Of a stretch of DNA of 11,284 nucleotides, positions 1-11,284 are shown in pieces. The stretch comes from a virus. Taxonomy: Duplodnaviria > Heunggongvirae > Uroviricota > Caudoviricetes. The notes under the pieces were generated by a model. That model made no database searches and was not told the origin of the DNA. It saw only the letters and a program-made list of their open reading frames with translations. The translations under genes and the position numbers were made by a program. Numbering within the stretch: position 1 is the stretch's first letter; the number at the start of each line of letters is the position of its first letter. Location: the IMG/VR virus record IMGVR_UViG_2663763286_000008. One strand, given 5' to 3'.

Positions 1-327
1 TCATTTTTTCCAGAGGCGGTCGAACTCCGCCTTCGCAAAATAAGCGGAAGCCTGGCGAAGGATATCGTTACTGCGGCGCAGTTCACGATTTTCACGTTCC
101 AGCTCTTTCAGACGCTGACGTTCAGCGGTGGTGAGTCCACCATCACCACTCCCGGTATCCCGCTCATGCTGACGAACCCACACACGCAGAGTCTCTGGTG
201 TACAGCCAATCTTTGGGGCAATGGAACAAATTGCCGCCCATTGTGAGTCATATTCGCCCTGACTTTCCAGAACCATACGAACTGCCCGTTGACGGACCTC
301 GGGGGAAAAACGTGTATTTTTAGTCAT
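1..327 (-). CDS. IS3-family transposase OrfA (IS629/IS1203-like helix-turn-helix subunit)
   Basis: The 108 aa product [59 protein letters not shown]...WKK matches the IS629-type OrfA as I recall it, including the HTH and leucine-zipper-like C-terminus. The stop codon lies at the first bases of the window. Confidence 0.9.
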
Positions 328-381
328 CCTGTTTACCTCTTTCTCAGGGAGTTTAGTCTCCAGGATTTCCGGGGCGGTTCA
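1..381 (-). mobile_element. IS629: IS3-family insertion sequence, IS629-like, partial: one terminus plus orfA; the element continues beyond the window start
   Basis: The minus-strand read of 327-381 is tgaaccgccccggaaatcctggagactaaactccctgagaaagaggtaaacagg followed by ATG, which matches my recollection of the IS629 left inverted repeat and orfA leader. The terminal TG...CA dinucleotide is typical of the IS3 family. orfA (1-327) is complete, and an A6 run just before its stop (plus 4-9) is a candidate -1 frameshift site for an OrfAB fusion. Confidence 0.85.
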
Positions 382-404
382 AATTGTTCTGTTTTCAGAA
401 ACAT
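382..404 (-). pseudogene. G: 5' remnant of a lambda G-like tail assembly chaperone gene (first 7 codons, MFLKTEQ) cut by the IS insertion
   Basis: The minus strand reads ggaggtcatac ATG ttt ctg aaa aca gaa caa tt and then runs straight into the IS terminus at 381. MFLKTE is the N-terminus of lambda gpG as I recall it. Position (directly downstream of V) and the GGAGG ribosome-binding site fit. Confidence 0.6.
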
Positions 405-417
405 GTATGACCTCCGT

Positions 418-1170
418 TTACCCTGCAGCGCCCGCTTCAGTAACGGTGACTTCAGCTACCGTGGCAAACTGACCATTACCGGAAATCACGGGGATACTCA
501 CTTTTCCAGCCTTAACCCCCGTCATAGTGATCACCATATCTTTCACAGCAATGGTTCCCGTTGACGGATCGGCGGAAACCGCTCTGAACGTCTTGTCGGT
601 TGCACTTTCCGGCTCAAAAGAAACAGTCAGGGTGGTTGTTTTTCCTTTTTCCACGGTACCGGATGTCGGTGTCACCTTAATTGCAGTGGCCGGCGTAATT
701 TCGCTGCGTTCTTCCGCCACGGAAGGTTTGCCCACGTTGGTCACTTTCACTGTTCGGGTGATCACTTCTTTCGCCGTCACTGCCTTACCGATACTGCTGA
801 TCCAGCCACGAAACACATCCACCGTGCCATTCGGAAAACGGATTTTATAGGCCCGCACATCCCCGCTTTCAAACCAGCCTATAAGCCCTTTCTGACCTTC
901 TTCTCCCGGTTTCCAGGCCAGTGTAAAACTGGTATCACCTGCAGATTTCTGTCCCTGCCCGGTCGCGCTCCAGTCCGCGTCTTCATCATCCAGGTAGTTA
1001 TCATCGTAGGATTCTGCCGTCATCTCGCCCGGCGTCAGATCCTTCACCTTAGCCAGTCGCTGCCAGTCATCATCTGACAACGGGTTTGCATAAGCATCAC
1101 CCTTGCCGGTGTAAACCCACAGAGTGGTACCGGCACCTTTTACCGGCGCCAGGGGATTTGGTGTTGGCAT
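418..1170 (-). CDS. V: major tail tube protein (lambda gpV homolog)
   Basis: The 250 aa product begins [20 protein letters not shown]...[26 protein letters not shown] and has an Ig-like C-terminal domain, collinear with lambda gpV (246 aa). ATG start with a GAGGA ribosome-binding site. Confidence 0.93.
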
Positions 1171-1177
1171 ATCGTCC

Positions 1178-1573
1178 TCACATCTCGTATGTAATTGAAT
1201 AAGTCAGATCTGCAGAGCTCCATAACGCCATATCGTCATCACGACGATAGTCATAGCCCTGCTGAACCATCGTGGTAATCATCCCTGCCAGTGCAGGGAT
1301 CGCGGACATCGCCGGATAAATCCGGGACTCCATCCACGAATCCAGCTCTGAATCCGGTACCTGTGCTGGTAAAAACACCTCAATATGCAGTGTGGCCCGC
1401 CAGGTATCTGCATCCAGCTCTTCACCGGTATACTCTGCATCCGTCAGATAAACCGCGACGGCCGGAAAATCCTCTTCGTCAAAAACAACGGGGCGACCAT
1501 CAAACAGCGTCGCCCCGTGTTCATGCTGCTCGAGTGCATCCAGCACTGCGGCACGGATATCAGTGTGTTTCAT
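1178..1573 (-). CDS. U: tail terminator / minor tail protein (lambda gpU homolog)
   Basis: The 131 aa product begins [33 protein letters not shown] and ends [10 protein letters not shown], closely matching lambda gpU (131 aa). Its start overlaps the Z stop as ATGA. Confidence 0.93.
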
Positions 1574-2103
1574 CGTTTTATCGCAATCCTCAGTTGTTGT
1601 TTCAGCGCGTATGCCAGTTCTCCGGGCAGACGTTCACTCCGGATACGGTCAACATTCTCATCAAACGCCTGTTTCAGTGGGGCCGCCATCGGGATTTTCA
1701 CCACATCAATGGGGTAACGGTTTTTCCCGACCACACGCTGCATGACATGCCAGCGACCATTTTTTAATCGCTGAATAAATGCCCGCTGATAACGATGCTG
1801 ACCGGCTTTGAGTATGCTGTCCGGACGACGCCCCGGCATCCTGATCCCCAGCTTAATCACCGGGAGATCACCGCGGTTAACGATAATTCTGGCATTCGGA
1901 TTTCTGACCGTGGCCCGTTTCAGTCTGGACCGTTCCTTTACCAGTTTCCGGCTCACCCTGGTCTCCCGGGCAACCTGTGACGAAGACTGATTAATCGCCG
2001 TTGTGGCCACGCGGTTAATGGCCATTGCTGAAGCCGCCGGAATGGCGTTTTTACGAACCCGGCTCAGATTTTCAATCGCCTGATCAAGCCCTTTTATCGC
2101 CAT
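1570..2103 (-). CDS. Z: tail completion protein (lambda gpZ homolog)
   Basis: The 177 aa product begins MAIKGLDQAIENLSRV and contains RLKNGRWHVMQRVVGKNRYPIDVVKIPMA, matching lambda gpZ. Confidence 0.9.
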   Translation of the reverse strand: MAIKGLDQAIENLSRVRKNAIPAASAMAINRVATTAINQSSSQVARETRVSRKLVKERSRLKRATVRNPNARIIVNRGDLPVIKLGIRMPGRRPDSILKAGQHRYQRAFIQRLKNGRWHVMQRVVGKNRYPIDVVKIPMAAPLKQAFDENVDRIRSERLPGELAYALKQQLRIAIKR

Positions 2104-2117
2104 AATTCACCCTGCGT

Positions 2118-2471
2118 TTATCGTCGCCGGTTAACTGCCGGTGGTTGCCCACGGTTGAGCCAGAGATAACAACTCCCTCCATCATCCGGAGAAACACGGT
2201 CCACCCAGAACATCTCGCCGTTAATGGTCAGCGTGTCACCACGCCGCACAGCACGAACCGTATCCGTCCGTACAAATAATGACGGGCAGCTTCCTTCAAT
2301 ACGGACCCCGCTACCGGCAAACCCCAGCGACTCCGGATCGTCAAAAACCCCCTGAACTTCGCTGCCACACTGTGCCCCCGAGGTGAACTGCGCACAGAGC
2401 CCCATCACTTCAACAATCGTGCTGTCCACCCCGGCAAGGGCAGCATCAAAGGCATTCTGAAAATCACGCAT
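2118..2471 (-). CDS. FII: head-tail connector protein (lambda gpFII homolog)
   Basis: The 117 aa product contains GVFDDPE...VRIEGS.PSLFVRTD.VR.LRRGDTLTI....FWVDRVSPDDGGSC.LWL.RG.PPAVNRRR, matching lambda gpFII (117 aa). Confidence 0.92.
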   Translation of the reverse strand: MRDFQNAFDAALAGVDSTIVEVMGLCAQFTSGAQCGSEVQGVFDDPESLGFAGSGVRIEGSCPSLFVRTDTVRAVRRGDTLTINGEMFWVDRVSPDDGGSCYLWLNRGQPPAVNRRR

Positions 2472-2847
2472 GCTCAGCCGTTCCGTGCTGTATCATGGCT
2501 GTCGCCAGTGGTGATGGCACCAGAACACGCATGCCCCGGTACGTCAGTTCAACGGGACGGCCTGTCTCCGGGCAATACCCCATCACATGCAGGCATTTCC
2601 GCACACGGACCGCTTTAACATCATCCGTAGCATCAGTGTTGTGCAACTGCTCACCATCGTCTGTGTGATTTTGCTCAGGCCCGCTCTCATCACCAGGCAT
2701 AATGCCCTCCCGGGAAGCAGCAAGCTCCTCTTCCCACTCAGACACACATTGCGCAATATCCGCAGCACTCCCCGACATATCCGCCTCGCGCCCCAGCAGG
2801 CCAGCCAGTTGACGAAGACGTTTCTGATTTTCTTCTTTTGTTGCCAT
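2464..2847 (-). CDS. FI: FI-like DNA packaging / head assembly protein (lambda gpFI position)
   Basis: Assigned by position between E and FII and by size (127 aa from the ATG at 2847 versus 132 aa for lambda FI); sequence similarity to lambda FI is weak. I prefer the ATG at 2847 (MATKEENQKRL, preceded by a GGGGG ribosome-binding site) over the GTG at 2895 given in the ORF track, because the longer ORF would read through a terminator-like hairpin. Confidence 0.7.
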   Translation of the reverse strand: MATKEENQKRLRQLAGLLGREADMSGSAADIAQCVSEWEEELAASREGIMPGDESGPEQNHTDDGEQLHNTDATDDVKAVRVRKCLHVMGYCPETGRPVELTYRGMRVLVPSPLATAMIQHGTAEHA

Positions 2848-2861
2848 ATCAGCCCCCTGTG

Positions 2862-2890
2862 AAAAAAGACACGGGGGCATTTCGCCCCCG
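2862..2890 (-). terminator. intrinsic-terminator-like hairpin immediately downstream of the major capsid gene E
   Basis: On the minus strand a 7 bp GC stem (cgggggc, loop gaaat, gcccccg) is followed by tgtcttttttc. It lies 10 nt after the E stop and ends about 15 nt before the FI ribosome-binding site. Confidence 0.6.
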
Positions 2891-2898
2891 CTCACGGA

Positions 2899-3927
2899 TT
2901 ATTTCACCTGCACCACCACAAACTCATCCGGATCCGGCAGCACCATCAGCGGTGCGGACTGCGTCATGGTAAATTCACGGGCCGGATCGCCCACGGTCAG
3001 CCAGTGTTTCGGGTAACGGGAAGAAGCCACCACACCTTCGGACAACGCCTGCGCATCCTGAATGGCACCGTAACAACGGATCCCATCTGCAGCCGTATTT
3101 CCCAGGACCAGCGTGCCCTCCGGCAGATAACGTTTTTCGGTACCGTCCTCTGCCACATAAGACGTTTTCGCCACCACAATGGCCAGATCGCCGTAATACC
3201 CTTTGAAAGACACCACCGCCCCCAGGTCTTTCACTGCCGTTTCGAGTTGTGAATTTGAGCCGCGACGGGTATCCAGTTTTTCGCGGAACAGCTTAAAACC
3301 ATTCAGCAGACACCAGACAGTACCGTCCATAATAGCAATATTCACAAGACCGCTGGCCTGATCGCAGTAGAGGTCAATATCATGCGTCGGATCAAACGTA
3401 TCACGGTCCTGCTCAGACCATTTTTTACCGTCGGCCTGCTCAATGTTATTTCCTTCAGAGCGTCCAAAATCCACCTCGACAGTATCAAACTGATCCCCTT
3501 CCATGGTGTATTTGCCATACAGCACGGCATTCACCGCCTGCATTTCTTCCACCTGGACAATGGCATGCTCTTCCTGTTTGAGGTTATCGGTGATGATACG
3601 CAGACGACGGTAGGCCGGGTCGTTCAGTTGAGCCGGATCTTCACCGGGAAGACGCTCAACCGCCTGCTGGTAATTAAATTCGTGTTTCGGCTTGACGTAG
3701 CCCGGACGTAACACGCGGGTTTCACCACCGCGATGACGCAGCACTTTTCCTTCAACAACCGGGGAGACATAGGCCGCCACCGGCGTTTTTCCGGTAATTT
3801 TGTCCAGCATCACCTCTTCGGTATGGAAATTCACCGTACGGCGGAAAAACAGCTCCAGAAACAGCGCACGAAATTTCACTTTTTGTTCGGTATAACCGAG
3901 TAACTGGCGGGTCGTAAACAATCCCAT
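2899..3927 (-). CDS. E: major capsid protein (lambda gpE homolog)
   Basis: The 342 aa product contains GYVKPKHE, EEMQAVNAVLYGKYTMEG, KLDTRRGSNSQLETAVKDLG and TVGDPAREFTMTQSAPLMVLPDPDEF, collinear with lambda gpE (341 aa). Confidence 0.95.
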   Translation of the reverse strand: MGLFTTRQLLGYTEQKVKFRALFLELFFRRTVNFHTEEVMLDKITGKTPVAAYVSPVVEGKVLRHRGGETRVLRPGYVKPKHEFNYQQAVERLPGEDPAQLNDPAYRRLRIITDNLKQEEHAIVQVEEMQAVNAVLYGKYTMEGDQFDTVEVDFGRSEGNNIEQADGKKWSEQDRDTFDPTHDIDLYCDQASGLVNIAIMDGTVWCLLNGFKLFREKLDTRRGSNSQLETAVKDLGAVVSFKGYYGDLAIVVAKTSYVAEDGTEKRYLPEGTLVLGNTAADGIRCYGAIQDAQALSEGVVASSRYPKHWLTVGDPAREFTMTQSAPLMVLPDPDEFVVVQVK

Positions 3928-3956
3928 AAATCAGTTCCTTTCATTCAGAAATCAGT

Positions 3957-3976
3957 CAGGCCACCGCGGTGGCCTG
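3957..3976. other. perfect 20 bp palindrome (caggccaccgcggtggcctg) in the D-E intergenic spacer; predicted RNA stem-loop
   Basis: The sequence is its own reverse complement. It lies between the D stop (3985) and the E ribosome-binding site and start (3927) and has no clean U-tract after it. Confidence 0.5.
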
Positions 3977-3984
3977 ATAACGTG

Positions 3985-4332
3985 TTACGGCAGCGCCGCG
4001 TGACTCAGGGCACTGCCGGCAAAGGCATTTGCCTTTTTGTGTTCATCCACACTTTCAGGCCAGCGGATTGCCTCCGTCGCAAAGGTCCCCGACTTGTAAT
4101 AGGTCAGTACCGTCTCTGTGCCTTCAAGCGGCAGTACCAGTATGCCAACTGCACTACCGGCTTTCTGTCCGTCCCAGACCACCAGTTTCCCGGTAGCTTC
4201 ATCCAGCATCAGGGGCGTCAGTGCCGGTGTTGCCGAGGAAATCCCGCTGCTGCCTGTGGCGGTATGAGCCGGATCATTACCGGCAAAAATACGTACTTCC
4301 GCACGCTGTTCAGTGATGTTTTTCGTTACCAT
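3985..4332 (-). CDS. D: head decoration protein (lambda gpD homolog)
   Basis: The 115 aa product contains NDPAHTATG, TPLMLD, KLV.WDG, AVGIL, YKSGTF and KK.AFAG, matching lambda gpD (110 aa). Confidence 0.93.
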   Translation of the reverse strand: MVTKNITEQRAEVRIFAGNDPAHTATGSSGISSATPALTPLMLDEATGKLVVWDGQKAGSAVGILVLPLEGTETVLTYYKSGTFATEAIRWPESVDEHKKANAFAGSALSHAALP

Positions 4333-4368
4333 ATTGTAAAAACCTCCTGTTGATGGTCAGCACTGACT

Positions 4369-5517
4369 TCATGGCATAGCCATGAGCATTTTCACGTCCG
4401 CATCACCGTCTGCTGACGTCTGTGGCACGCCACCCTGTACCGCTGCCGGTGAATGGTTCGCCATGATGCGTTCAAACAGGGCGGTTGTGGATGCAGAGAC
4501 CGGTTCTGCCTTACCTGATCCCGCAGCCAGCACAGCCCGGGCGCTCTCCACAGTCATTCCCGGGCAGGCAGCCAGCTGTTCAGCCTGCGCCTCAGCCCCT
4601 TTTGCCTCATCCAGTGCCATGATCTGATCACGGAGTGAGGGTCCGGCATCCGCCTGCGGTGAAGCAGCCAGGATCGGGCGGGCTTTTTCCACCGTCATCT
4701 CCGGCATCGCCGCCTGACCTTCAAAAACGGCGGCCTCTGTTCCCGTGACGGCATCAACAGACAGACCGGTAAACATGGCCACTTTTTCGGCAAACATCCG
4801 GCGCGCCGCATCAATGCGCTGCTGCATGTCCTGGCGAACCTCTGCCGGTAAGGCTTCAAACTGATTGCCATCCACCTTGTGCGCCCCTGAGTAAATCAGC
4901 GTGATATCCACACCGGCCTGCGCCAGATGACCGGCATAGCTGACATGGCTCATCATCACGCCAATGGAGCCGATACGGGATGTCTGGGTAACCAGCCGTC
5001 GGGAGCAGGCCGACGCCAGCAGCATGGCTGCAGAACAGGCCGTGTCATTGCACAGTGCCCAGACCGGCTTCTGCTGACGGAGGCGGTAAATCATGTCAGC
5101 GCAGTCAAACGCGCCGGCGGCCTGCCCGCCCGGACTGTCAATGTCCAGCAGTACGCCCCGCACCTGGCTATCCGCCATTGCCTGCTGAAGACAGGCGACA
5201 ATGCCGTCATAGCCTGTCATTCCGGAAAATGGCCGCATACCCCCCAGCCGGTGCACCAGCGTGCCGGTCACCGGCAGTACAGCAATACCGTTCACCACCC
5301 GGTAAACACGGGCCGGTCGTTTACCTCCGGCCATGTACTCGTCCGTTTCAGCCAGCATTCCGGGAGCATCAAGCTGTACCTGCTGCTGTGGTACCGAAAG
5401 ACTTGCTGCCCCCATCTCGCGCCCGAGCGCGCAAAAGAAAACCCGCGCATAGGCGGGCTCCAGAAGCAGCGGTTCATTGAATGCTGCGGCAATAATGTGT
5501 GAAAGATTACGTCTCAC
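4369..5517 (-). CDS. C: head maturation protease / scaffold (lambda gpC homolog, ClpP/S49-like fold), probably with a nested Nu3-like scaffold reading frame
   Basis: The 382 aa product contains AFNEPLLLEPAYARVFFCAL, VLPVTGTLV, LLDIDSPGG, GAFDCADMI, KPVWAL, SRRLVTQTSRIGSIGVMM, ITLIYSGAHKVDGN and ETPGMTV, collinear with lambda gpC. It starts at a GTG with a GAGGAG ribosome-binding site and overlaps the end of B by 11 nt. Confidence 0.9.
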   Translation of the reverse strand: MRRNLSHIIAAAFNEPLLLEPAYARVFFCALGREMGAASLSVPQQQVQLDAPGMLAETDEYMAGGKRPARVYRVVNGIAVLPVTGTLVHRLGGMRPFSGMTGYDGIVACLQQAMADSQVRGVLLDIDSPGGQAAGAFDCADMIYRLRQQKPVWALCNDTACSAAMLLASACSRRLVTQTSRIGSIGVMMSHVSYAGHLAQAGVDITLIYSGAHKVDGNQFEALPAEVRQDMQQRIDAARRMFAEKVAMFTGLSVDAVTGTEAAVFEGQAAMPEMTVEKARPILAASPQADAGPSLRDQIMALDEAKGAEAQAEQLAACPGMTVESARAVLAAGSGKAEPVSASTTALFERIMANHSPAAVQGGVPQTSADGDADVKMLMAMP

Positions 5518-7099
5518 GGGGTGTTGTCTCCTCTTCCGGCCTGCGACTCTCCGCTATCTGCTGCTGATACGCCTGCGCTATCCACACCGGACGTGAGAGT
5601 CCGGCTTTTTGCCGCTCTGCAGATTCCCTGACCTGCTGGCGGAAAATGTCCTGATAATCCTCGCCCATCAGCGCCAGCTCTTTCTCATACGTGCTCAGTC
5701 CGGCCTCAATGCGCATCACCGATTCCTGAACCTCCTTGAGCCCGTCAATGGCCATTCTTCCGGCACCAATCCACTCTGCCCGTGACCAGGCTGATCGCGC
5801 CTGATAAAAATCAAAACGCGCCCGTGGCGGACGGATAATCCCCCGAAGAAGTGCCTCTTCCAGCCAGCAGGAAAACATCTGCGTGGCCAGCCGGGCCGCA
5901 ATAAATTTTCGCCGCCCCATAAAATAGCGCCACGACTCATTGGCAGAGGCCCTGGCACTTGAATAACTGACCTTCGAGTAATCACGGGACAACTGTTCGT
6001 AGGAAACGCCAAGACCGGCGGCGATATACCGCAGCAGCGCCTGTTCAAGCGCCGAAAATCCATTGTCTGAATCCTGCGCAGTCTGTAGTTTCAGATCATC
6101 CCCGGGGAAAAGGTGCGGAATTTTGACACCACCCAGCGTCACGTTATTCGTGTCATACCAGCTGGAGAACTTCTCCAGAATATTAATAAGCGGATTATCC
6201 TTCTGCCCCTGCGGCGCACCGGCGATATATTCAAAGGCCTTTTCGGTATCAAGGTCACTTTCAATCGTCGCTGCATACATGGCTTTCACAATGGCCGACT
6301 GAAGCTGTGTTGCCTGCAGGGAATCGAGCATCTTCAGCCGTTCCATGACGCTGTAAAACTGGTTGGCCCCACGGGTCTGCCCGTCCTCCACCGGCTCGAA
6401 AATATGCAGCATGGCCGGACGCCCGGTGGGAAGTTCACGCGGGATCCGTTCCCATCGTCCACTCCCGGAGCGAGGAAAATCATCCTCACAGATATGGTAC
6501 GCAACGGCACGGCCATATCGATCGACCTCCACCCCGGCCCGCAGAAAACGGTTCCCCATACCGTGTCCTGGCGTGTCCACCCGTTTCGGACTCACGGCTT
6601 TAAAACGCGTACGGAATAACTGCGTGGTTTCCGTATCCCAGACCGGCTGCACAAAGATTTCGCCGTTAAACGCATGAACGCCCACACCTTCACGGATAAA
6701 TTCCGTGAACGTGCGTTTTCCTTCCACGTCGATCTCGCCAGACATCCCTTCGGCGTATTCCGACCAGGCCGCCTCCACCTCATCGACAAAGCTTTTTGCT
6801 GCGGTCTCCCGCATCCCCAGCCAGCGCCAGTTCGGACGGTAGCTGATAAGAAACATATGCCCGACAATGTGATCCTTATGCAGTGCCACCGCATTGGCCG
6901 CTATTCCGTTATTGCGCACCAGATCATCTGCCCGGGCATTCCCCAGACGCAACGCGGGCAGCAGGGCCGCATCGGCACTCTGCGCCGGTGGCAACCACTC
7001 CGCCATTTGCCCGCCAAATCCTGCACCGCCCCCGTTGTAGCTGAGACTCTCACGAAGCGGAACGCCGTTCACATCAATCAGGACAGGCGTTCGTTTCAT
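5507..7099 (-). CDS. B: portal protein (lambda gpB homolog)
   Basis: The 530 aa product contains YNGGGAGFGGQ, GNARADDLVRNNG, FEPVEDGQTRGANQFYSVME, LQSAIVKAMYAATIES, LLRYIAAGLGVSYEQLSR, ASANESW.YFMGRRKF and GRMAIDGLKEVQE, matching lambda gpB (533 aa). Confidence 0.95.
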   Translation of the reverse strand: MKRTPVLIDVNGVPLRESLSYNGGGAGFGGQMAEWLPPAQSADAALLPALRLGNARADDLVRNNGIAANAVALHKDHIVGHMFLISYRPNWRWLGMRETAAKSFVDEVEAAWSEYAEGMSGEIDVEGKRTFTEFIREGVGVHAFNGEIFVQPVWDTETTQLFRTRFKAVSPKRVDTPGHGMGNRFLRAGVEVDRYGRAVAYHICEDDFPRSGSGRWERIPRELPTGRPAMLHIFEPVEDGQTRGANQFYSVMERLKMLDSLQATQLQSAIVKAMYAATIESDLDTEKAFEYIAGAPQGQKDNPLINILEKFSSWYDTNNVTLGGVKIPHLFPGDDLKLQTAQDSDNGFSALEQALLRYIAAGLGVSYEQLSRDYSKVSYSSARASANESWRYFMGRRKFIAARLATQMFSCWLEEALLRGIIRPPRARFDFYQARSAWSRAEWIGAGRMAIDGLKEVQESVMRIEAGLSTYEKELALMGEDYQDIFRQQVRESAERQKAGLSRPVWIAQAYQQQIAESRRPEEETTPRET

Positions 7100-7302
7100 A
7101 ACCTCACTCCCAGCGGATGACGGCGACGCCGGGTTGTCCCCAGTACCGACTCCGCATCATTGATCGCCCGGTTAAGCTCATCCAGAGAAGCCGCCGTATA
7201 TTCAATTCTGCGACCATCTTTCTGGACAGACACCACCCGTTTACCGGTTAATAAATCAAGGCGCGCCTGACGCAGCGCCTGCAGTTCAGCGACTGTAACC
7301 AT
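7096..7302 (-). CDS. W: head-tail joining / head completion protein (lambda gpW homolog)
   Basis: The 68 aa product contains TGKRV..VQKDGRR.E.TA.S and RRRR, the same length and motif as lambda gpW. Its stop overlaps the B start as ATGA. Confidence 0.9.
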   Translation of the reverse strand: MVTVAELQALRQARLDLLTGKRVVSVQKDGRRIEYTAASLDELNRAINDAESVLGTTRRRRHPLGVRL

Positions 7303-9214
7303 TCACTCCTCCGGACAGCTTCGCTGCCAGTTCTTTCAGGGTTGGCCGGGTCGTCTCTTCTTCCCGGGATTTTGCCAGTACAGCCAGATCAAGCTGCCAG
7401 CGTTGCACGGACACACGTAATGCCGCGTAGGCATACACCAGGCAGTCCAGCGCTTCGTTACGCCGCTTTTTGTTATCCCACAGCAGACGCATCTTTCCTT
7501 TTTCCCACTTCTCCACCAGCTCTTCCGCCACCAGTTGCTGCGCCTCTGTCTGCGAAAAAATCTCCGGATCATCAGGAAAACGGATGGCATACGACGTGGC
7601 TTCATCCGCAGGCGAGGGATCGGCTTTCATACGGGCATAGAGAATTTCTTTTGCGGTGTCCGTTCCCACTTCACACAGATACACGCCCCGCTGATTGCGG
7701 GTTTTTGGCATGGTGATCACCGGCTTGCCATAGACAGATGCGCCTTTTACCGGCAGCACCCGGAAAACACCGTGTTTTTTTGATCTCTGATAAACAATTT
7801 CACCATCGATCCCCCCGGTGTCCCAGCAGACACGGGAAATAGTCATTTCGGTGCCATCCGCATGGCGGTATTTTTTGTTGATCGCCGCATCCACACGTAA
7901 CAGCGTCTCTTCCTCATCAGGACGCCCCATAATGATGATTTTATCCACCAGAAAGGCTTCCTCTCCCGGAGCCCATCCCCAGACATACATCTCAAAACGG
8001 TTTCGCTGCGAGTCAATGCCCGCCGTCAGATAAACCACCCGGGCAGGCACCGCCGCCGTGTAACGCACCACCTTATCCATCAGTACCTGGTGATCGAGTT
8101 TTTCGCCCACGGCCTCTTCCCAGGTCTCGCCCAGCGTGGTGTTCACAAAGGTTTTCAGGCCGTTGGGATCTTTCAGTGCATCCAGCCAGTCATAGACAAT
8201 CTGTACCCAGGTGGTGAACGGACTGTACGCCGTCCAGATATGGAAAGTGATGGAGCGCGGCGGCGGAATTTCATCACCCCGGGCGCTGAAAAACGTCAGA
8301 CCGTCACGGGTCCACATGCCCGTGTTTTCACAGATCCACCGCCCGTTGCTCTGGTCCAGTTCAGACTGATGGATCACGCAGCCATGATGTTCACAGAGGT
8401 AGAAAACACTTTCAGGGCTGTCCTTCTCCCATTTAAGCCCAAAAGGCGTGGACTCATCGCCAAATTTCAGATACTGCTCCTCCCCACAGTGCGGGCAGGG
8501 CACATAAAAACGCATAAAATGCGCCGACTCGTTAGCGGCTTTTTCGATCTGGCAGGTGCCTTTGATTTTAGGCGTCGAGCCGCGAATGGATTTTGGCCAC
8601 ACCGACCCCTCAATACGCTTATCCCCCAGCAGGGTTGGCGAGCCCTCTTTTTCGACATCCGGCTCGAACGAGGAAAGTTCGTCATAGCAGACCACGTCCA
8701 CGGATTTTTCACGGTAGTTTTTGGCGGCAGCGCCGCCCAGGCACCAGAAACCGACGCCCGATGAAAAGCGTTTCAGCGTGAGAGTATTGTCACGATGTTT
8801 ACGACCCAGCCATGGGGAAAGGTCTTTCAGGCATGGCACGTTCCGAATCGTCGCCTCCACGTGAGACTTCATAAAATCTTCAGCGGCAGAATCCGTGGGC
8901 TGAAAAAGCAGACTGTTTCGGGATTTATGCTCAATAAAATACCCGACCACCCCCAGCAACATCTTTGTATAGCCAACACGGGCAGATTTAATCAGGTTAA
9001 CCGTGCGAACCTGGTCGTTACCCATACAGTTCATAATGGCGATCTGGAATGGCAGCGTTTTCCATTCTCCCTCACCGTATGAGGATTCTTTAGGCAGATA
9101 ATAATTTTGATCAGCCCATTCAACTGCCGTCATTGGTACAACCCTGACCAGAGGCTGCAGCGCAACCGAAACGGCAGCCATCATATTATTCAGTTGTTGC
9201 TCTGATATATTCAT
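7286..9214 (-). CDS. A: terminase large subunit (lambda gpA homolog)
   Basis: From the ATG at 9214 (MNISEQQLNN) the 642 aa product contains TAVEWAD.NYYLPKES, ARVGY.KMLLGV, KSVDV..YDEL, GDKRIEGSVWPKSIRGSTPK, HFMRF.V.CPHCGEEQYLKFGD.ETPFGLKW, HIWTAYSPFTTWVQIV and KKRRNEALDC.VYA.AALR, collinear with lambda gpA. The ORF track's longer TTG start at 9271 is rejected. Confidence 0.95.
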   Translation of the reverse strand: MNISEQQLNNMMAAVSVALQPLVRVVPMTAVEWADQNYYLPKESSYGEGEWKTLPFQIAIMNCMGNDQVRTVNLIKSARVGYTKMLLGVVGYFIEHKSRNSLLFQPTDSAAEDFMKSHVEATIRNVPCLKDLSPWLGRKHRDNTLTLKRFSSGVGFWCLGGAAAKNYREKSVDVVCYDELSSFEPDVEKEGSPTLLGDKRIEGSVWPKSIRGSTPKIKGTCQIEKAANESAHFMRFYVPCPHCGEEQYLKFGDESTPFGLKWEKDSPESVFYLCEHHGCVIHQSELDQSNGRWICENTGMWTRDGLTFFSARGDEIPPPRSITFHIWTAYSPFTTWVQIVYDWLDALKDPNGLKTFVNTTLGETWEEAVGEKLDHQVLMDKVVRYTAAVPARVVYLTAGIDSQRNRFEMYVWGWAPGEEAFLVDKIIIMGRPDEEETLLRVDAAINKKYRHADGTEMTISRVCWDTGGIDGEIVYQRSKKHGVFRVLPVKGASVYGKPVITMPKTRNQRGVYLCEVGTDTAKEILYARMKADPSPADEATSYAIRFPDDPEIFSQTEAQQLVAEELVEKWEKGKMRLLWDNKKRRNEALDCLVYAYAALRVSVQRWQLDLAVLAKSREEETTRPTLKELAAKLSGGVNGYSR

Positions 9215-9695
9215 CGAGTAAATCCGGTAATTTATCCCCTGCCCGCGCACACTGATTTGCCCCCTTCGCAATAAGGGTTTTCAGATGGTCAAGATGGCGC
9301 GGTGTTAAATCAGGAAACTGTCGCTGCATGGATAAAGGGATGGAATCAAGCGTACTGGATAACGCCATTGCCAGCTTACTGAGGGCAAAAATACAGAACC
9401 CGGTGTCAATAAGTTTTCCTTTTGACACCTCATTTTTTAACTGCTGTGTAACAGCCTGTTCTGCTGTCAGTTCCCATCTGGCAATAAGCAATTTCTCCTC
9501 ATAGTCGTCTTCGCTATCGCCATCAGGCACATCGTTTTTACTTCTCCTCAGATATGATATGTAAAAATCGCGCCAGGCATCCAGATCCAGTTGCCCTCGC
9601 TTATTCGATATCGGGGCACCCGGCAATTTCTGCAATCTGCGAAGCTGGCGATCGGTCAGACTTAAATGCCTGGCAACTTCAGTCTGCGTAGCCAC
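9186..9695 (-). CDS. nu1: terminase small subunit (Nu1-like) with a divergent N-terminal DNA-binding domain
   Basis: The C-terminal two thirds (IDTGFCIFALSKLAMALSSTLDSIPLSMQRQFPDLTPRHLDHLK...LLDEYI) resemble lambda Nu1, whereas the N-terminus (MATQTEVARHLSLTDRQLRRLQ, HTH-like) does not. It starts at a GTG with a GAGGTGAGGA ribosome-binding site, overlaps the start of A by 29 nt as in lambda, and sits directly downstream of cos. Confidence 0.85.
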   Translation of the reverse strand: MATQTEVARHLSLTDRQLRRLQKLPGAPISNKRGQLDLDAWRDFYISYLRRSKNDVPDGDSEDDYEEKLLIARWELTAEQAVTQQLKNEVSKGKLIDTGFCIFALSKLAMALSSTLDSIPLSMQRQFPDLTPRHLDHLKTLIAKGANQCARAGDKLPDLLDEYIRATTE

Positions 9696-9842: not shown

Positions 9843-9878
9843 ATCCCGGAAAATTTTCATAAATAGCGAAAACCCGCG

Positions 9879-9890
9879 AGGTCGCCGCCC
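9879..9890 (-). other. cosN cohesive-end sequence (minus strand GGGCGGCGACCT)
   Basis: The minus strand reads gggcggcgacctcgcgggttttcgctatttatgaaaattttccgg, identical to the lambda left end as I recall it. The other side (9891-9906, minus-strand read gatccgacaggttacg) matches the lambda right terminus. Confidence 0.85.
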
Positions 9891-10097
9891 CGTAACCTGT
9901 CGGATCGCCGGAAAGGACCCACGAAAATGATAATAATTATCATCTACATGAGGTTTATCACGACATGTGTGTACGCCATCAAACCACGAGAAATAATCAA
10001 TTATTACGCAAGTATCGTATTAATTGATCTGCATCAAATTAGCGTAAAAGCAACTTCAGATAATACAAATCAGCAACACTGAATACGGGGCAACATT

Positions 10098-10322
10098 ATG
10101 TCATCAAAGAACAGAACCCGCAGAACAACAACCCGCAACATCCGATTTCCAAACCAGATAATTGAACAAATTAACATCGCTCTTGACCTGAAAGGTTCAG
10201 GTAATTTTTCAGCGTGGGTTATTGAAGCCTGCAGAAGAAGATTAATTAATGAAAAATATTCTCAATTTGTACCCAACAAAGACAAACACGACCAGAGCAC
10301 CTGTTCAGACAGGTTTACTTAA
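10098..10322 (+). CDS. small DUF3950-family protein (YlcI/YnfO-like; homolog of the small ORF at the lambda right end), probable ribbon-helix-helix fold
   Basis: The 74 aa product MSSKNRTRRTTTRNIRFPNQIIEQINIALDLKGSGNFSAWVIEACRRRL has the YlcI/YnfO-type N-terminus I recall from lambdoid prophages. The pattern of a basic N-terminus, a short beta strand (NIRFP) and two helices resembles ribbon-helix-helix DNA binders. ATG start with a GGGG ribosome-binding site. Confidence 0.75.
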   Translation: MSSKNRTRRTTTRNIRFPNQIIEQINIALDLKGSGNFSAWVIEACRRRLINEKYSQFVPNKDKHDQSTCSDRFT

Positions 10323-10340
10323 ACGACTTATATATGACAC

Positions 10341-10367
10341 AAAAAGCGACCACTAAAGTCGCTTTTT
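10341..10367. terminator. bidirectional intrinsic terminator between the convergent DUF3950 and PerC-like genes
   Basis: aaaaagcgac cactaaa gtcgcttttt: a 6 bp GC-containing stem (agcgac/gtcgct) with a 7 nt loop, flanked by an A5 run on one side and a T5 run on the other, so it can act on transcripts from either strand. It lies 19 nt after the DUF3950 stop and 37 nt after the PerC-like stop. Confidence 0.65.
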
Positions 10368-10403
10368 CTTATGGTAACAGGCAATAACGCTCTCAGATAT
10401 TTT

Positions 10404-10718
10404 TTAGCATTTTTTTGACCGCGCGTTTCCGGACGTATTCTGTTCTCCTGTCCCTTTATATCGTCGGAATACCCGCCGCTCTTCAAATCCCATTCCCAAC
10501 TCAGAATGTAGTCTGTTGACCGCTTGTTTTATTTCGGTCAGGTTCACCGGTGAAACCGGAGTCCGGCGCGCCTTACGCAAACACTCTGCTCGTTTCTGTG
10601 CCGCCACTTTTCTTTTCTGGTCATCACTTAGCTGTACCATCACTTTTGCCCATCGTTCAGCTGCTCTCCGGTACAGTCCTTTTTTCTCCAGACATTCTGC
10701 CACGTGATCATGTAGCAT
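10404..10718 (-). CDS. PerC-family transcriptional regulator (Pch-like, PerC homolog)
   Basis: The 104 aa product MLHDHVAECLEKKGLYRRAAERWAKVMVQLSDDQKRKVAAQKRAECLRKARR carries the LEKKGL(W/Y)RRA..RWA..M motif that I recognise as the PerC/Pch signature. ATG start with a GGAGG ribosome-binding site 8 nt upstream. Low GC, in contrast to the flanking phage genes. Confidence 0.75.
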   Translation of the reverse strand: MLHDHVAECLEKKGLYRRAAERWAKVMVQLSDDQKRKVAAQKRAECLRKARRTPVSPVNLTEIKQAVNRLHSELGMGFEERRVFRRYKGTGEQNTSGNARSKKC

Positions 10719-11183: not shown

Positions 11184-11284
11184 TCACGGTATACACTGGG
11201 TACGGATATATTCCTGTGCTCCTTCCAGTTGCTTCTGCATTGCCATCAGCCGTTCTCTGAGGATGAAATAATCCCGTTCAGCGG
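11184..11284 (-). CDS. Rz: i-spanin Rz, 3' end only (gene starts beyond the window end)
   Basis: The minus-strand frame ending at 11184 reads ...AERDYFILRERLMAMQKQLEGAQEYIRTQCIP*, matching the lambda Rz C-terminus (AERDYFTLRERL..MQKQLEG.Q.YI..QC) as I recall it. Confidence 0.8.
   Translation of the reverse strand, partial: AERDYFILRERLMAMQKQLEGAQEYIRTQCIP
11246..11284 (-). CDS. Rz1: o-spanin Rz1, 3' end only, embedded in the +1 frame of Rz
   Basis: The alternative minus-strand frame reads ...PLNGIISSSENG*, matching the lambda Rz1 C-terminus (PLNGIISPSERG), with the typical nesting inside Rz. Confidence 0.75.
   Translation of the reverse strand, partial: PLNGIISSSENG

Follow-up and report, generated by a model that had tools for sequence, protein, structure and literature searches.

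The joint between gene G and IS629 in a lambdoid late-gene block of Shiga-toxin-type Escherichia coli is probably an IS-mediated rearrangement joint in an already decayed prophage

Tail assembly in bacteriophage lambda requires G and G-T. In Shiga-toxin-type E. coli the inactivation and rearrangement of prophages by the insertion sequence IS629 is already well documented. IS629 makes target duplications of 3-4 bp (Rump et al. 2011, PMC3271280), and such a duplication is present at 21 of the 47 IS629 copies in O157 genomes (PMC3271280). It is known that IS629 leads to gene inactivation and that IS629 and IEE generate deletions of up to >40 kb beside the element (PMC9943667); for these deletions that paper refers to Ooka et al. 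2009 and Kusumoto et al. 2011. At a larger scale, E. coli O157:H7 chromosomes are known to be rearranged between prophages or between IS copies (PMC8743559). The present study concerns a late-gene block of a lambdoid prophage in which gene G runs directly into the end of an IS629 copy.

The window, by which we mean the whole stretch of 11,284 bp that was analysed, is the reverse complement of the entire draft contig JXWD01000077.1 (GCA_000948825.1). One end of this contig lies inside a multi-copy IS and the other inside the multi-copy lysis region (Rz). All the genes from Nu1 to V, the stub of G and the orfA of the IS are on the minus strand of the window (Table 1). Near-identical late modules exist in several copies per STEC genome, and the contig breaks at its Rz/lysis end because they occur 2-3 times per genome in related strains; positions 11184..11284 of the window fall within the Rz/lysis gene. 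At the opposite end the contig breaks within IS629, thus the far side of the IS is invisible in the window, and for the same reason a simple insertion is not visible from the window.

Only one closed assembly was found to have the G'-IS629 junction. It is a 5.2-Mb contig, JAVQNY010000001.1 (GCA_046575645.1), here called L005, which is 99.95% identical to the window across all 11,284 bp (6 nt differ) and carries the identical junction and the identical deletion in gene C. L022 is the leftward extension of the same contig, and L004 (contig JAOWNZ010000031.1) and L007 are siblings in which G is intact. The relatives of the window are O145:H28, O103, O121 and similar EHEC/STEC-type strains, in agreement with the EHEC-type E. 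coli host proposed in the original prediction. Of the complete relatives of the head module, the closest (L003) has zinT/yodB as its integration site and is uninformative on the layout in this lineage. Comparison with 5,426 complete RefSeq E. coli genomes gave no match to the G'-IS junction, the C-deletion junction or the IS-int' junction described below. Since all three are missing from the closed RefSeq genomes, the lineage is not represented there. IMG/VR viral contigs likewise gave no matches to the G'-IS junction or to the reciprocal IS-'G junction.

Table 1. Position of the genes and joints of the late-gene block within the window
Feature	Position	Strand	Basis or remark
IS629 copy, left 381 bp (IS3 family); terminal inverted repeat from 381 (TGAACCGCCCCGGAAATCCTGGAGACT...)	1..381	-	match to L005 element
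IS629 orfA, 108 aa, HTH transposase (HTH_Tnp_1)	1..327	-	PF01527, 48.1 bits; NF033516 positions 1-86
Chimeric residual ORF, 23 codons, G' read into IS end	333..404	-	called as 23-aa gene in L010
Tail assembly chaperone G remnant, ATG + 6 codons + 2 nt (MFLKTEQ/F)	382..404	-	identical to 5' end of G in relatives
V-G intergenic spacer with G ribosome-binding site GGAGG (415..411)	405..417	-	sequence
Major tail tube V, 250 aa, intact	418..1170	-	PF16461, Big_2
Tail terminator U	1178..1573	-	profile match, length
Z	1570..2103	-	ATGA overlap with U
FII	2118..2471	-	profile match, length
FI	2464..2847	-	profile match, length
Major capsid E	2899..3927	-	profile match, length
Decoration protein D	3985..4332	-	profile match, length
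Head protease/scaffold C, Nu3-type nested scaffold, in-frame deletion	4369..5517	-	382 aa vs 501
Portal B, open, full length	5507..7099	-	profile match, length
W, open, full length	7096..7302	-	profile match, length
Terminase A, open, full length	7286..9214	-	profile match, length
Nu1, open, full length	9186..9695	-	profile match, length

The IS in the window is the same element as the IS629 of EHEC O157:H7 (PMC3271280, PMC9943667), with 98.8% identity, a length of 1,310 bp, orfA/orfB and the ALIL pseudoknot in common. It is found in the same habitat, i.e. the lambdoid prophages of Shiga-toxin-type E. coli, and it has had the same outcomes, namely gene truncation, a lost target duplication and rearranged flanks. 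In contrast, the window lineage is not O157:H7, and the site in codon 8 of G together with its partner, 23 bp before the int stop, is absent from the 5,426 genomes. The original prediction that positions 1-381 are IS629-like was borne out. Of the 5,426 complete E. coli genomes, 3,754 gave IS3-family matches to this segment, the best at 99.5% identity, and it differs by 1 nt, which is synonymous, from the complete element of L005 (15137-16446). Over all of its 1,310 bp the latter shares 98.8% identity with the element annotated as IS629 in phage BP-4795, which exceeds a threshold of 95% full-length identity, and it has imperfect inverted repeats of the form 5'-TG...CA-3' (TGAACCGCCCCGG.../...CCGGGGCGGTTCA), of which the window holds the left end only. 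An orfA (HTH) and an orfB (DDE/rve) linked by a -1 frameshift with the ALIL pseudoknot were found. Base 1 of the window is the last base of the orfA stop codon, and the last ~46 nt of orfA (window 46..1) are the start of the pseudoknot, which is complete in L005 at the orfA/orfB boundary (15472-15588; RF01497, 121.5 bits, 117/117 positions). OrfB of L005 scored 311.9 bits against the IS3 equivalog NF033516.

Two IS629 copies in the relatives carry lesions. At the G joint of L005 there is an in-frame TGA in orfB (15739..15741), and given this codon the copy may be non-autonomous. L004 has an extra copy between lysozyme and Rz (2318..3626), which is 1,309 bp long with a frameshift and one ambiguous base. 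These lesions may be real defects or long-read assembly errors.

On the phage side of the joint the organization is that of lambda: G lies directly after V, it has its own ribosome-binding site, and its N-terminus is MFLKTE. The start codon ATG is at 404..402 and the stop codon of V at 420..418. It had been predicted that the IS truncates G after seven codons and that the reading frame MFLKTEQ has its own ribosome-binding site, and both statements stand, with the precision that 7 codons and 2 nt are left. These 23 nt and the spacer upstream are identical to those of the relatives. Uninterrupted V-G regions match the window from 378 onward at 98-99%, and the terminus of the IS (TGAACCGCC) begins at 381, where the phage homology ends (378-382). 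In the uninterrupted relatives G is a protein of 143 aa that matches the lambda-G equivalog (TIGR01674, 167 bits; PF06894), and past the point of the IS insertion it reads (A)ATTTGAATATAACGG. Residues 8-9 (FE) agree with G by coincidence, as the IS end TGAAC resembles TTTGAA of G. The 23-aa G'-IS chimeric ORF is not on record as a protein.

In the sibling L004 the slip site GGGAAAG is at nt 408 of the 432 nt of G and T continues for 149 codons in the -1 frame; in the uninterrupted siblings, just as in lambda, 24 nt separate the slip site from the stop. In contrast to lambda the window keeps just 23 nt of G: the body of the chaperone and T are gone, and a GGGAAAG slip site with T in the -1 frame is absent from the window. 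Our data support the loss of the G/G-T chaperone function at this locus and indicate that the late-gene unit of the window is unable to make tails, which agrees with the tail defect that had been proposed.

The far side of IS629 is seen in the closed relative. In L005 the right end of the element (...CCCGGGGCGGTTCA) runs into int' (AATCCAGTGTTGGTGTG) and not into the rest of G. This int' is on the opposite strand, its last 23 bp (6 codons) are missing, and it is followed by a DUF4224 xis-like gene and then by an 811-aa exonuclease (exo), DUF1482 and dicB. The gene for the DicF antisense RNA (L005 20822..20873, minus strand; Rfam RF00039, 77 bits) adjoins dicB in this int arm. Since the far end of IS629 joins int' and not G, T-J are not downstream in L005. 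The earlier suggestion of an insertion that is polar on T-J is not supported here, as the IS is followed by int'/xis/exo and has no target duplication. The original prediction had also looked for G to resume past the IS and had named a rearrangement junction as the finding that would count against it; L005 demonstrates such a junction. The element is flanked by AATT towards G and by AATC at its opposite end (3 bp, ATT vs AAT), so that no target duplication of 3-4 bp flanks the IS629 of L005. The lack of a duplication is weak evidence alone because only 21 of the 47 O157 copies show one; it speaks against a simple insertion and not against the identity of the element as IS629. It should be noted that simple insertions are recognizable in these genomes, since the flanks of another IS629 copy in L004, taken as a control, are contiguous in the empty site of L005.

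The int arm of L005 shares 99.9% identity with the left arm of the yccA/tRNA-Ser (serT) prophage in the strains O145:H28 RM9872, SMN152SH1 and 2014C-3011, and the match starts at the first base after the IS. Both arms match one and the same SMN152SH1 prophage, with identities of 99.71% for the late region and 99.92% for the int arm. The late genes of L005 lie upstream of int in the same orientation, which is a layout of the circular-permutation type. At the joint int' reads into the right end of IS629 and gives a 410-aa chimera (L005 16211..17443, minus strand) in which the recombinase domain is kept to residue 333. The chimera is on record from 1 contig only, and in the homology search it falls within an integrase cluster of 1,765 members. 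The reciprocal joints, IS629-'G and yccA-int3'-IS629, were not found within the reach of the search, which was 10 kb around the window-encoded proteins. Going by the near-identity of the window to L005, the genome from which the window derives probably has the same IS-int' joint.

The other side of the block ends at a second IS. In L022 an IS66-family element of 2,442 bp (3326..5767) is located 33 nt upstream of the holin gene; its flanks, AGACAAAA and TTTTCTGT, show that an 8-bp target duplication is missing. On the far side of this element the chromosome resumes with the molR-like DUF4132/WGR locus. The closest relatives have metG next to molR, ~1.5 Mb away from the yccA prophage; in L005 molR and the yccA-type int arm have been brought to 15 kb apart. 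Between them is a block of 13 kb, from holin to G', which is bounded by two IS joints, one with IS66 and one with IS629. Upstream of this block neither Q nor a late promoter is left in L005/L022, and the late operon is thus detached from Q/late promoter in the closed relative; the window itself ends in Rz. A second genome supports a block bounded by IS66 and IS629, as the draft contig L006 begins 7 nt beyond the end of IS66 and breaks off 4 nt short of the end of IS629. The IS66-holin junction was also observed in L004. The situation is like the rearrangements of O157:H7 (PMC8743559) in that loci ~1.5 Mb apart (molR/metG and yccA) have come to lie within 15 kb with mobile elements at the joints; the difference is that here copies of IS66 and IS629 bound a 13-kb late-gene block.

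The head module next to the joint had been taken as apparently intact, with every gene from Nu1 to V at full length. It was found that 11 of the 12 genes equal those of the closest relative in length and that C is the exception (382 aa vs 501), so that the set Nu1, A, W, B, C/Nu3, D, E, FI and FII is not full length throughout. Moreover, the block of the closed relative has lost Q and the late promoter to the IS66 joint. The lambda-like overlaps that had been pointed out were confirmed, viz. ATGA at Z/U and W/B and an overlap of 29 nt at Nu1/A. C has a clean in-frame deletion of 357 bp (119 aa) with its junction at ~4714 and 1 bp of microhomology. The deletion takes the end of the S49 domain and about 1.5 of the 3 scaffold repeats, and the S49 profile is matched to position 134 of 154, as against 151 of 154 in an intact homolog. 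The deleted segment is conserved with lambda gpC/Nu3 (EAIDAGLADELVN..DAI.VM). Judged from the sequence, the deletion would inactivate the protein. That it also removes the Nu3 start was considered and rejected, as the Nu3 start of lambda aligns upstream of the deletion. The allele is on record from 47 contigs, among them the G-intact L004 and L007 (99.9% identical).

Some further differences were observed around the head genes. L005 has a private CGA-to-TGA nonsense mutation in codon 194 of the portal gene (L005 8419..10011; window position 6520), which splits B into ORFs of 193 aa and 301 aa; the portal of the window is intact. Between the lysis genes and Nu1 the window encodes a PerC-family regulator of 104 aa (10404..10718, minus strand) and a DUF3950 gene (10098..10322, plus strand), the allele of which is present in 7,762 blocks. 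The Pch activators of the LEE island in EHEC are of the same size and position as the PerC-family gene, and by this analogy a PerC/Pch-type gene could explain why the remnant is retained.

The distribution of the lesions gives their order. As the siblings L004 and L007 carry the C deletion with an intact G, the deletion is older than the IS629 event. The G'::IS629 junction itself is present in at least 5 distinct contigs (L005, L008, L009, L010 and L011). L010 and L011 have 90 and 14 mismatches to the window, respectively, which are tightly clustered at window 409..1295 (V/U) and 9876..10389 (around cos); by their sequence these clusters look like recombination patches from other lambdoid prophages. 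An older C deletion that is shared, and a junction that is present in at least 5 contigs which have since diverged, point to stepwise decay and not to a single recent hit. The fairly recent inactivation that was originally suggested is hence not upheld, with a C deletion that predates the IS and some copies of the junction patched later. The block in the window is a cryptic prophage remnant that has been eroded stepwise.

Related prophages have decayed along other lines. In L004 and L007 an independent deletion has taken the 3' portion of H, all of M, L and K, and the 5' portion of I, and a fusion ORF of tape measure and gpI, H'::I (TMP_2 + Lambda_tail_I, 535 aa), is found at L004 15957..17564 and L007 9701..11713. 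The yccA/serT prophage of SMN152SH1 and 2014C-3011 contains a fusion of terminase A' to J' with loss of W-I (L014 41610..42554; L037 23388..25921). This prophage is like that of the window lineage in the int-xis-exo-dicB arm (99.9%) and in the late region from holin to A (99.7%). The two differ in that the former lost W to I through A'::J', whereas the window lineage kept A-V and lost part of C and everything after codon 8 of G.

Taken together, our data make it probable that the G'-IS629 junction is an IS-mediated rearrangement joint in an orphan late-gene block that had already decayed. C had lost 119 codons before the IS629 event. The joint most likely started as a transposition of IS629 into codon 8 of G by copy-out/paste-in, with an OrfAB frameshift transposase. 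Later on, a second IS629 copy, located at the 3' end of int, would have taken part in a recombination or rearrangement by which the far end of IS629 was fused to int' of a lambdoid prophage of the yccA/serT type. The 13-kb late block is an orphan, with IS66 joining it to molR and cutting off Q and the late promoter. Two nested inversions could be one pathway to this layout; it could also be possible that an IS629-bounded circle was excised and re-entered through IS66. Tandem duplication of the block was rejected, as the closed genome has a single place each for A and C, and so was a plain deletion between tandem prophages, as the molR flank is ~1.5 Mb from yccA in the relatives. Since a tandem duplicate is unlikely and deletion alone is excluded, we infer that at least 2 IS-mediated events were needed.

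Other explanations have to be weighed against this one. The origin of the G'-IS629 joint must have been an insertion into G, siblings with an intact G-T-H exist (L004 and L007), the window contig cannot display the far side of the IS, and the IS-int' joint is recorded in a single assembly. All of this would suit a simple, self-contained insertion of IS629, with the rest of G and T-J beyond the element, a target duplication of 3-4 bp, and an L005 arrangement that came about later in that strain only by IS629 recombination. We regard it as unlikely, for L005 differs from the window by 6 of 11,284 nt and has the same junction and C deletion, and L006 shows the block trimmed at both IS66 and IS629. 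Even in that event the older C deletion would leave neither an intact head module nor a recent hit tenable. A different course would be a one-step deletion by IS629 between tandem prophages at serT, in which 'G-J, a hybrid att and the final 23 bp of int in the downstream prophage were lost and nothing larger was rearranged. The adjacent deletions of up to >40 kb generated by IS629 and IEE provide a precedent, G' and int' are oriented as would be expected in a tandem array, and both arms match one prophage type. The other flank of the block is molR, ~1.5 Mb from yccA in the closest relatives, and because this flank sits in a full-size 5.2-Mb contig a deletion alone cannot explain the layout; in addition there is one copy each of A and C in the L005 genome. 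Such a deletion is very improbable.

That the contig ends in a multi-copy repeat could suggest an assembly artefact, i.e. a chimeric join of IS reads to phage sequence with G intact in the real genome. This is hardly credible, as the identical junction is found in at least 5 distinct contigs from different assemblies, one of which spans the whole IS, and the contig of the window continues for 381 bp inside the IS and does not branch at codon 8 of G. There is also only a very slim chance that the IS-bounded block of head and tail-tube genes is a domesticated module under selection, with the IS66 and IS629 joints marking its translocation as a unit to molR. If it were so, a satellite or a different prophage might obtain its capsids from the block, or the block might hitch-hike with the PerC/Pch-type gene. 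A rearrangement joint in a decayed block is the reading that we retain.

What IS629 is, where it is found and what it does are all well described, and the joint in the window is a real but ordinary feature of such genomes which raises no new biological question. Its value is mainly that of a warning: when a draft contig ends in a sharp IS boundary, this does not equal a simple insertion, as the far side may be a rearrangement joint, which is the case in the only closed relative. The same prophage has suffered different losses in different lineages, as seen from the C deletion, H'::I, A'::J', G'::IS629 and the portal nonsense mutation. For the genomics of STEC, the locus is one more case in which IS629 and IS66 have dismantled a lambdoid prophage and relocated its pieces.
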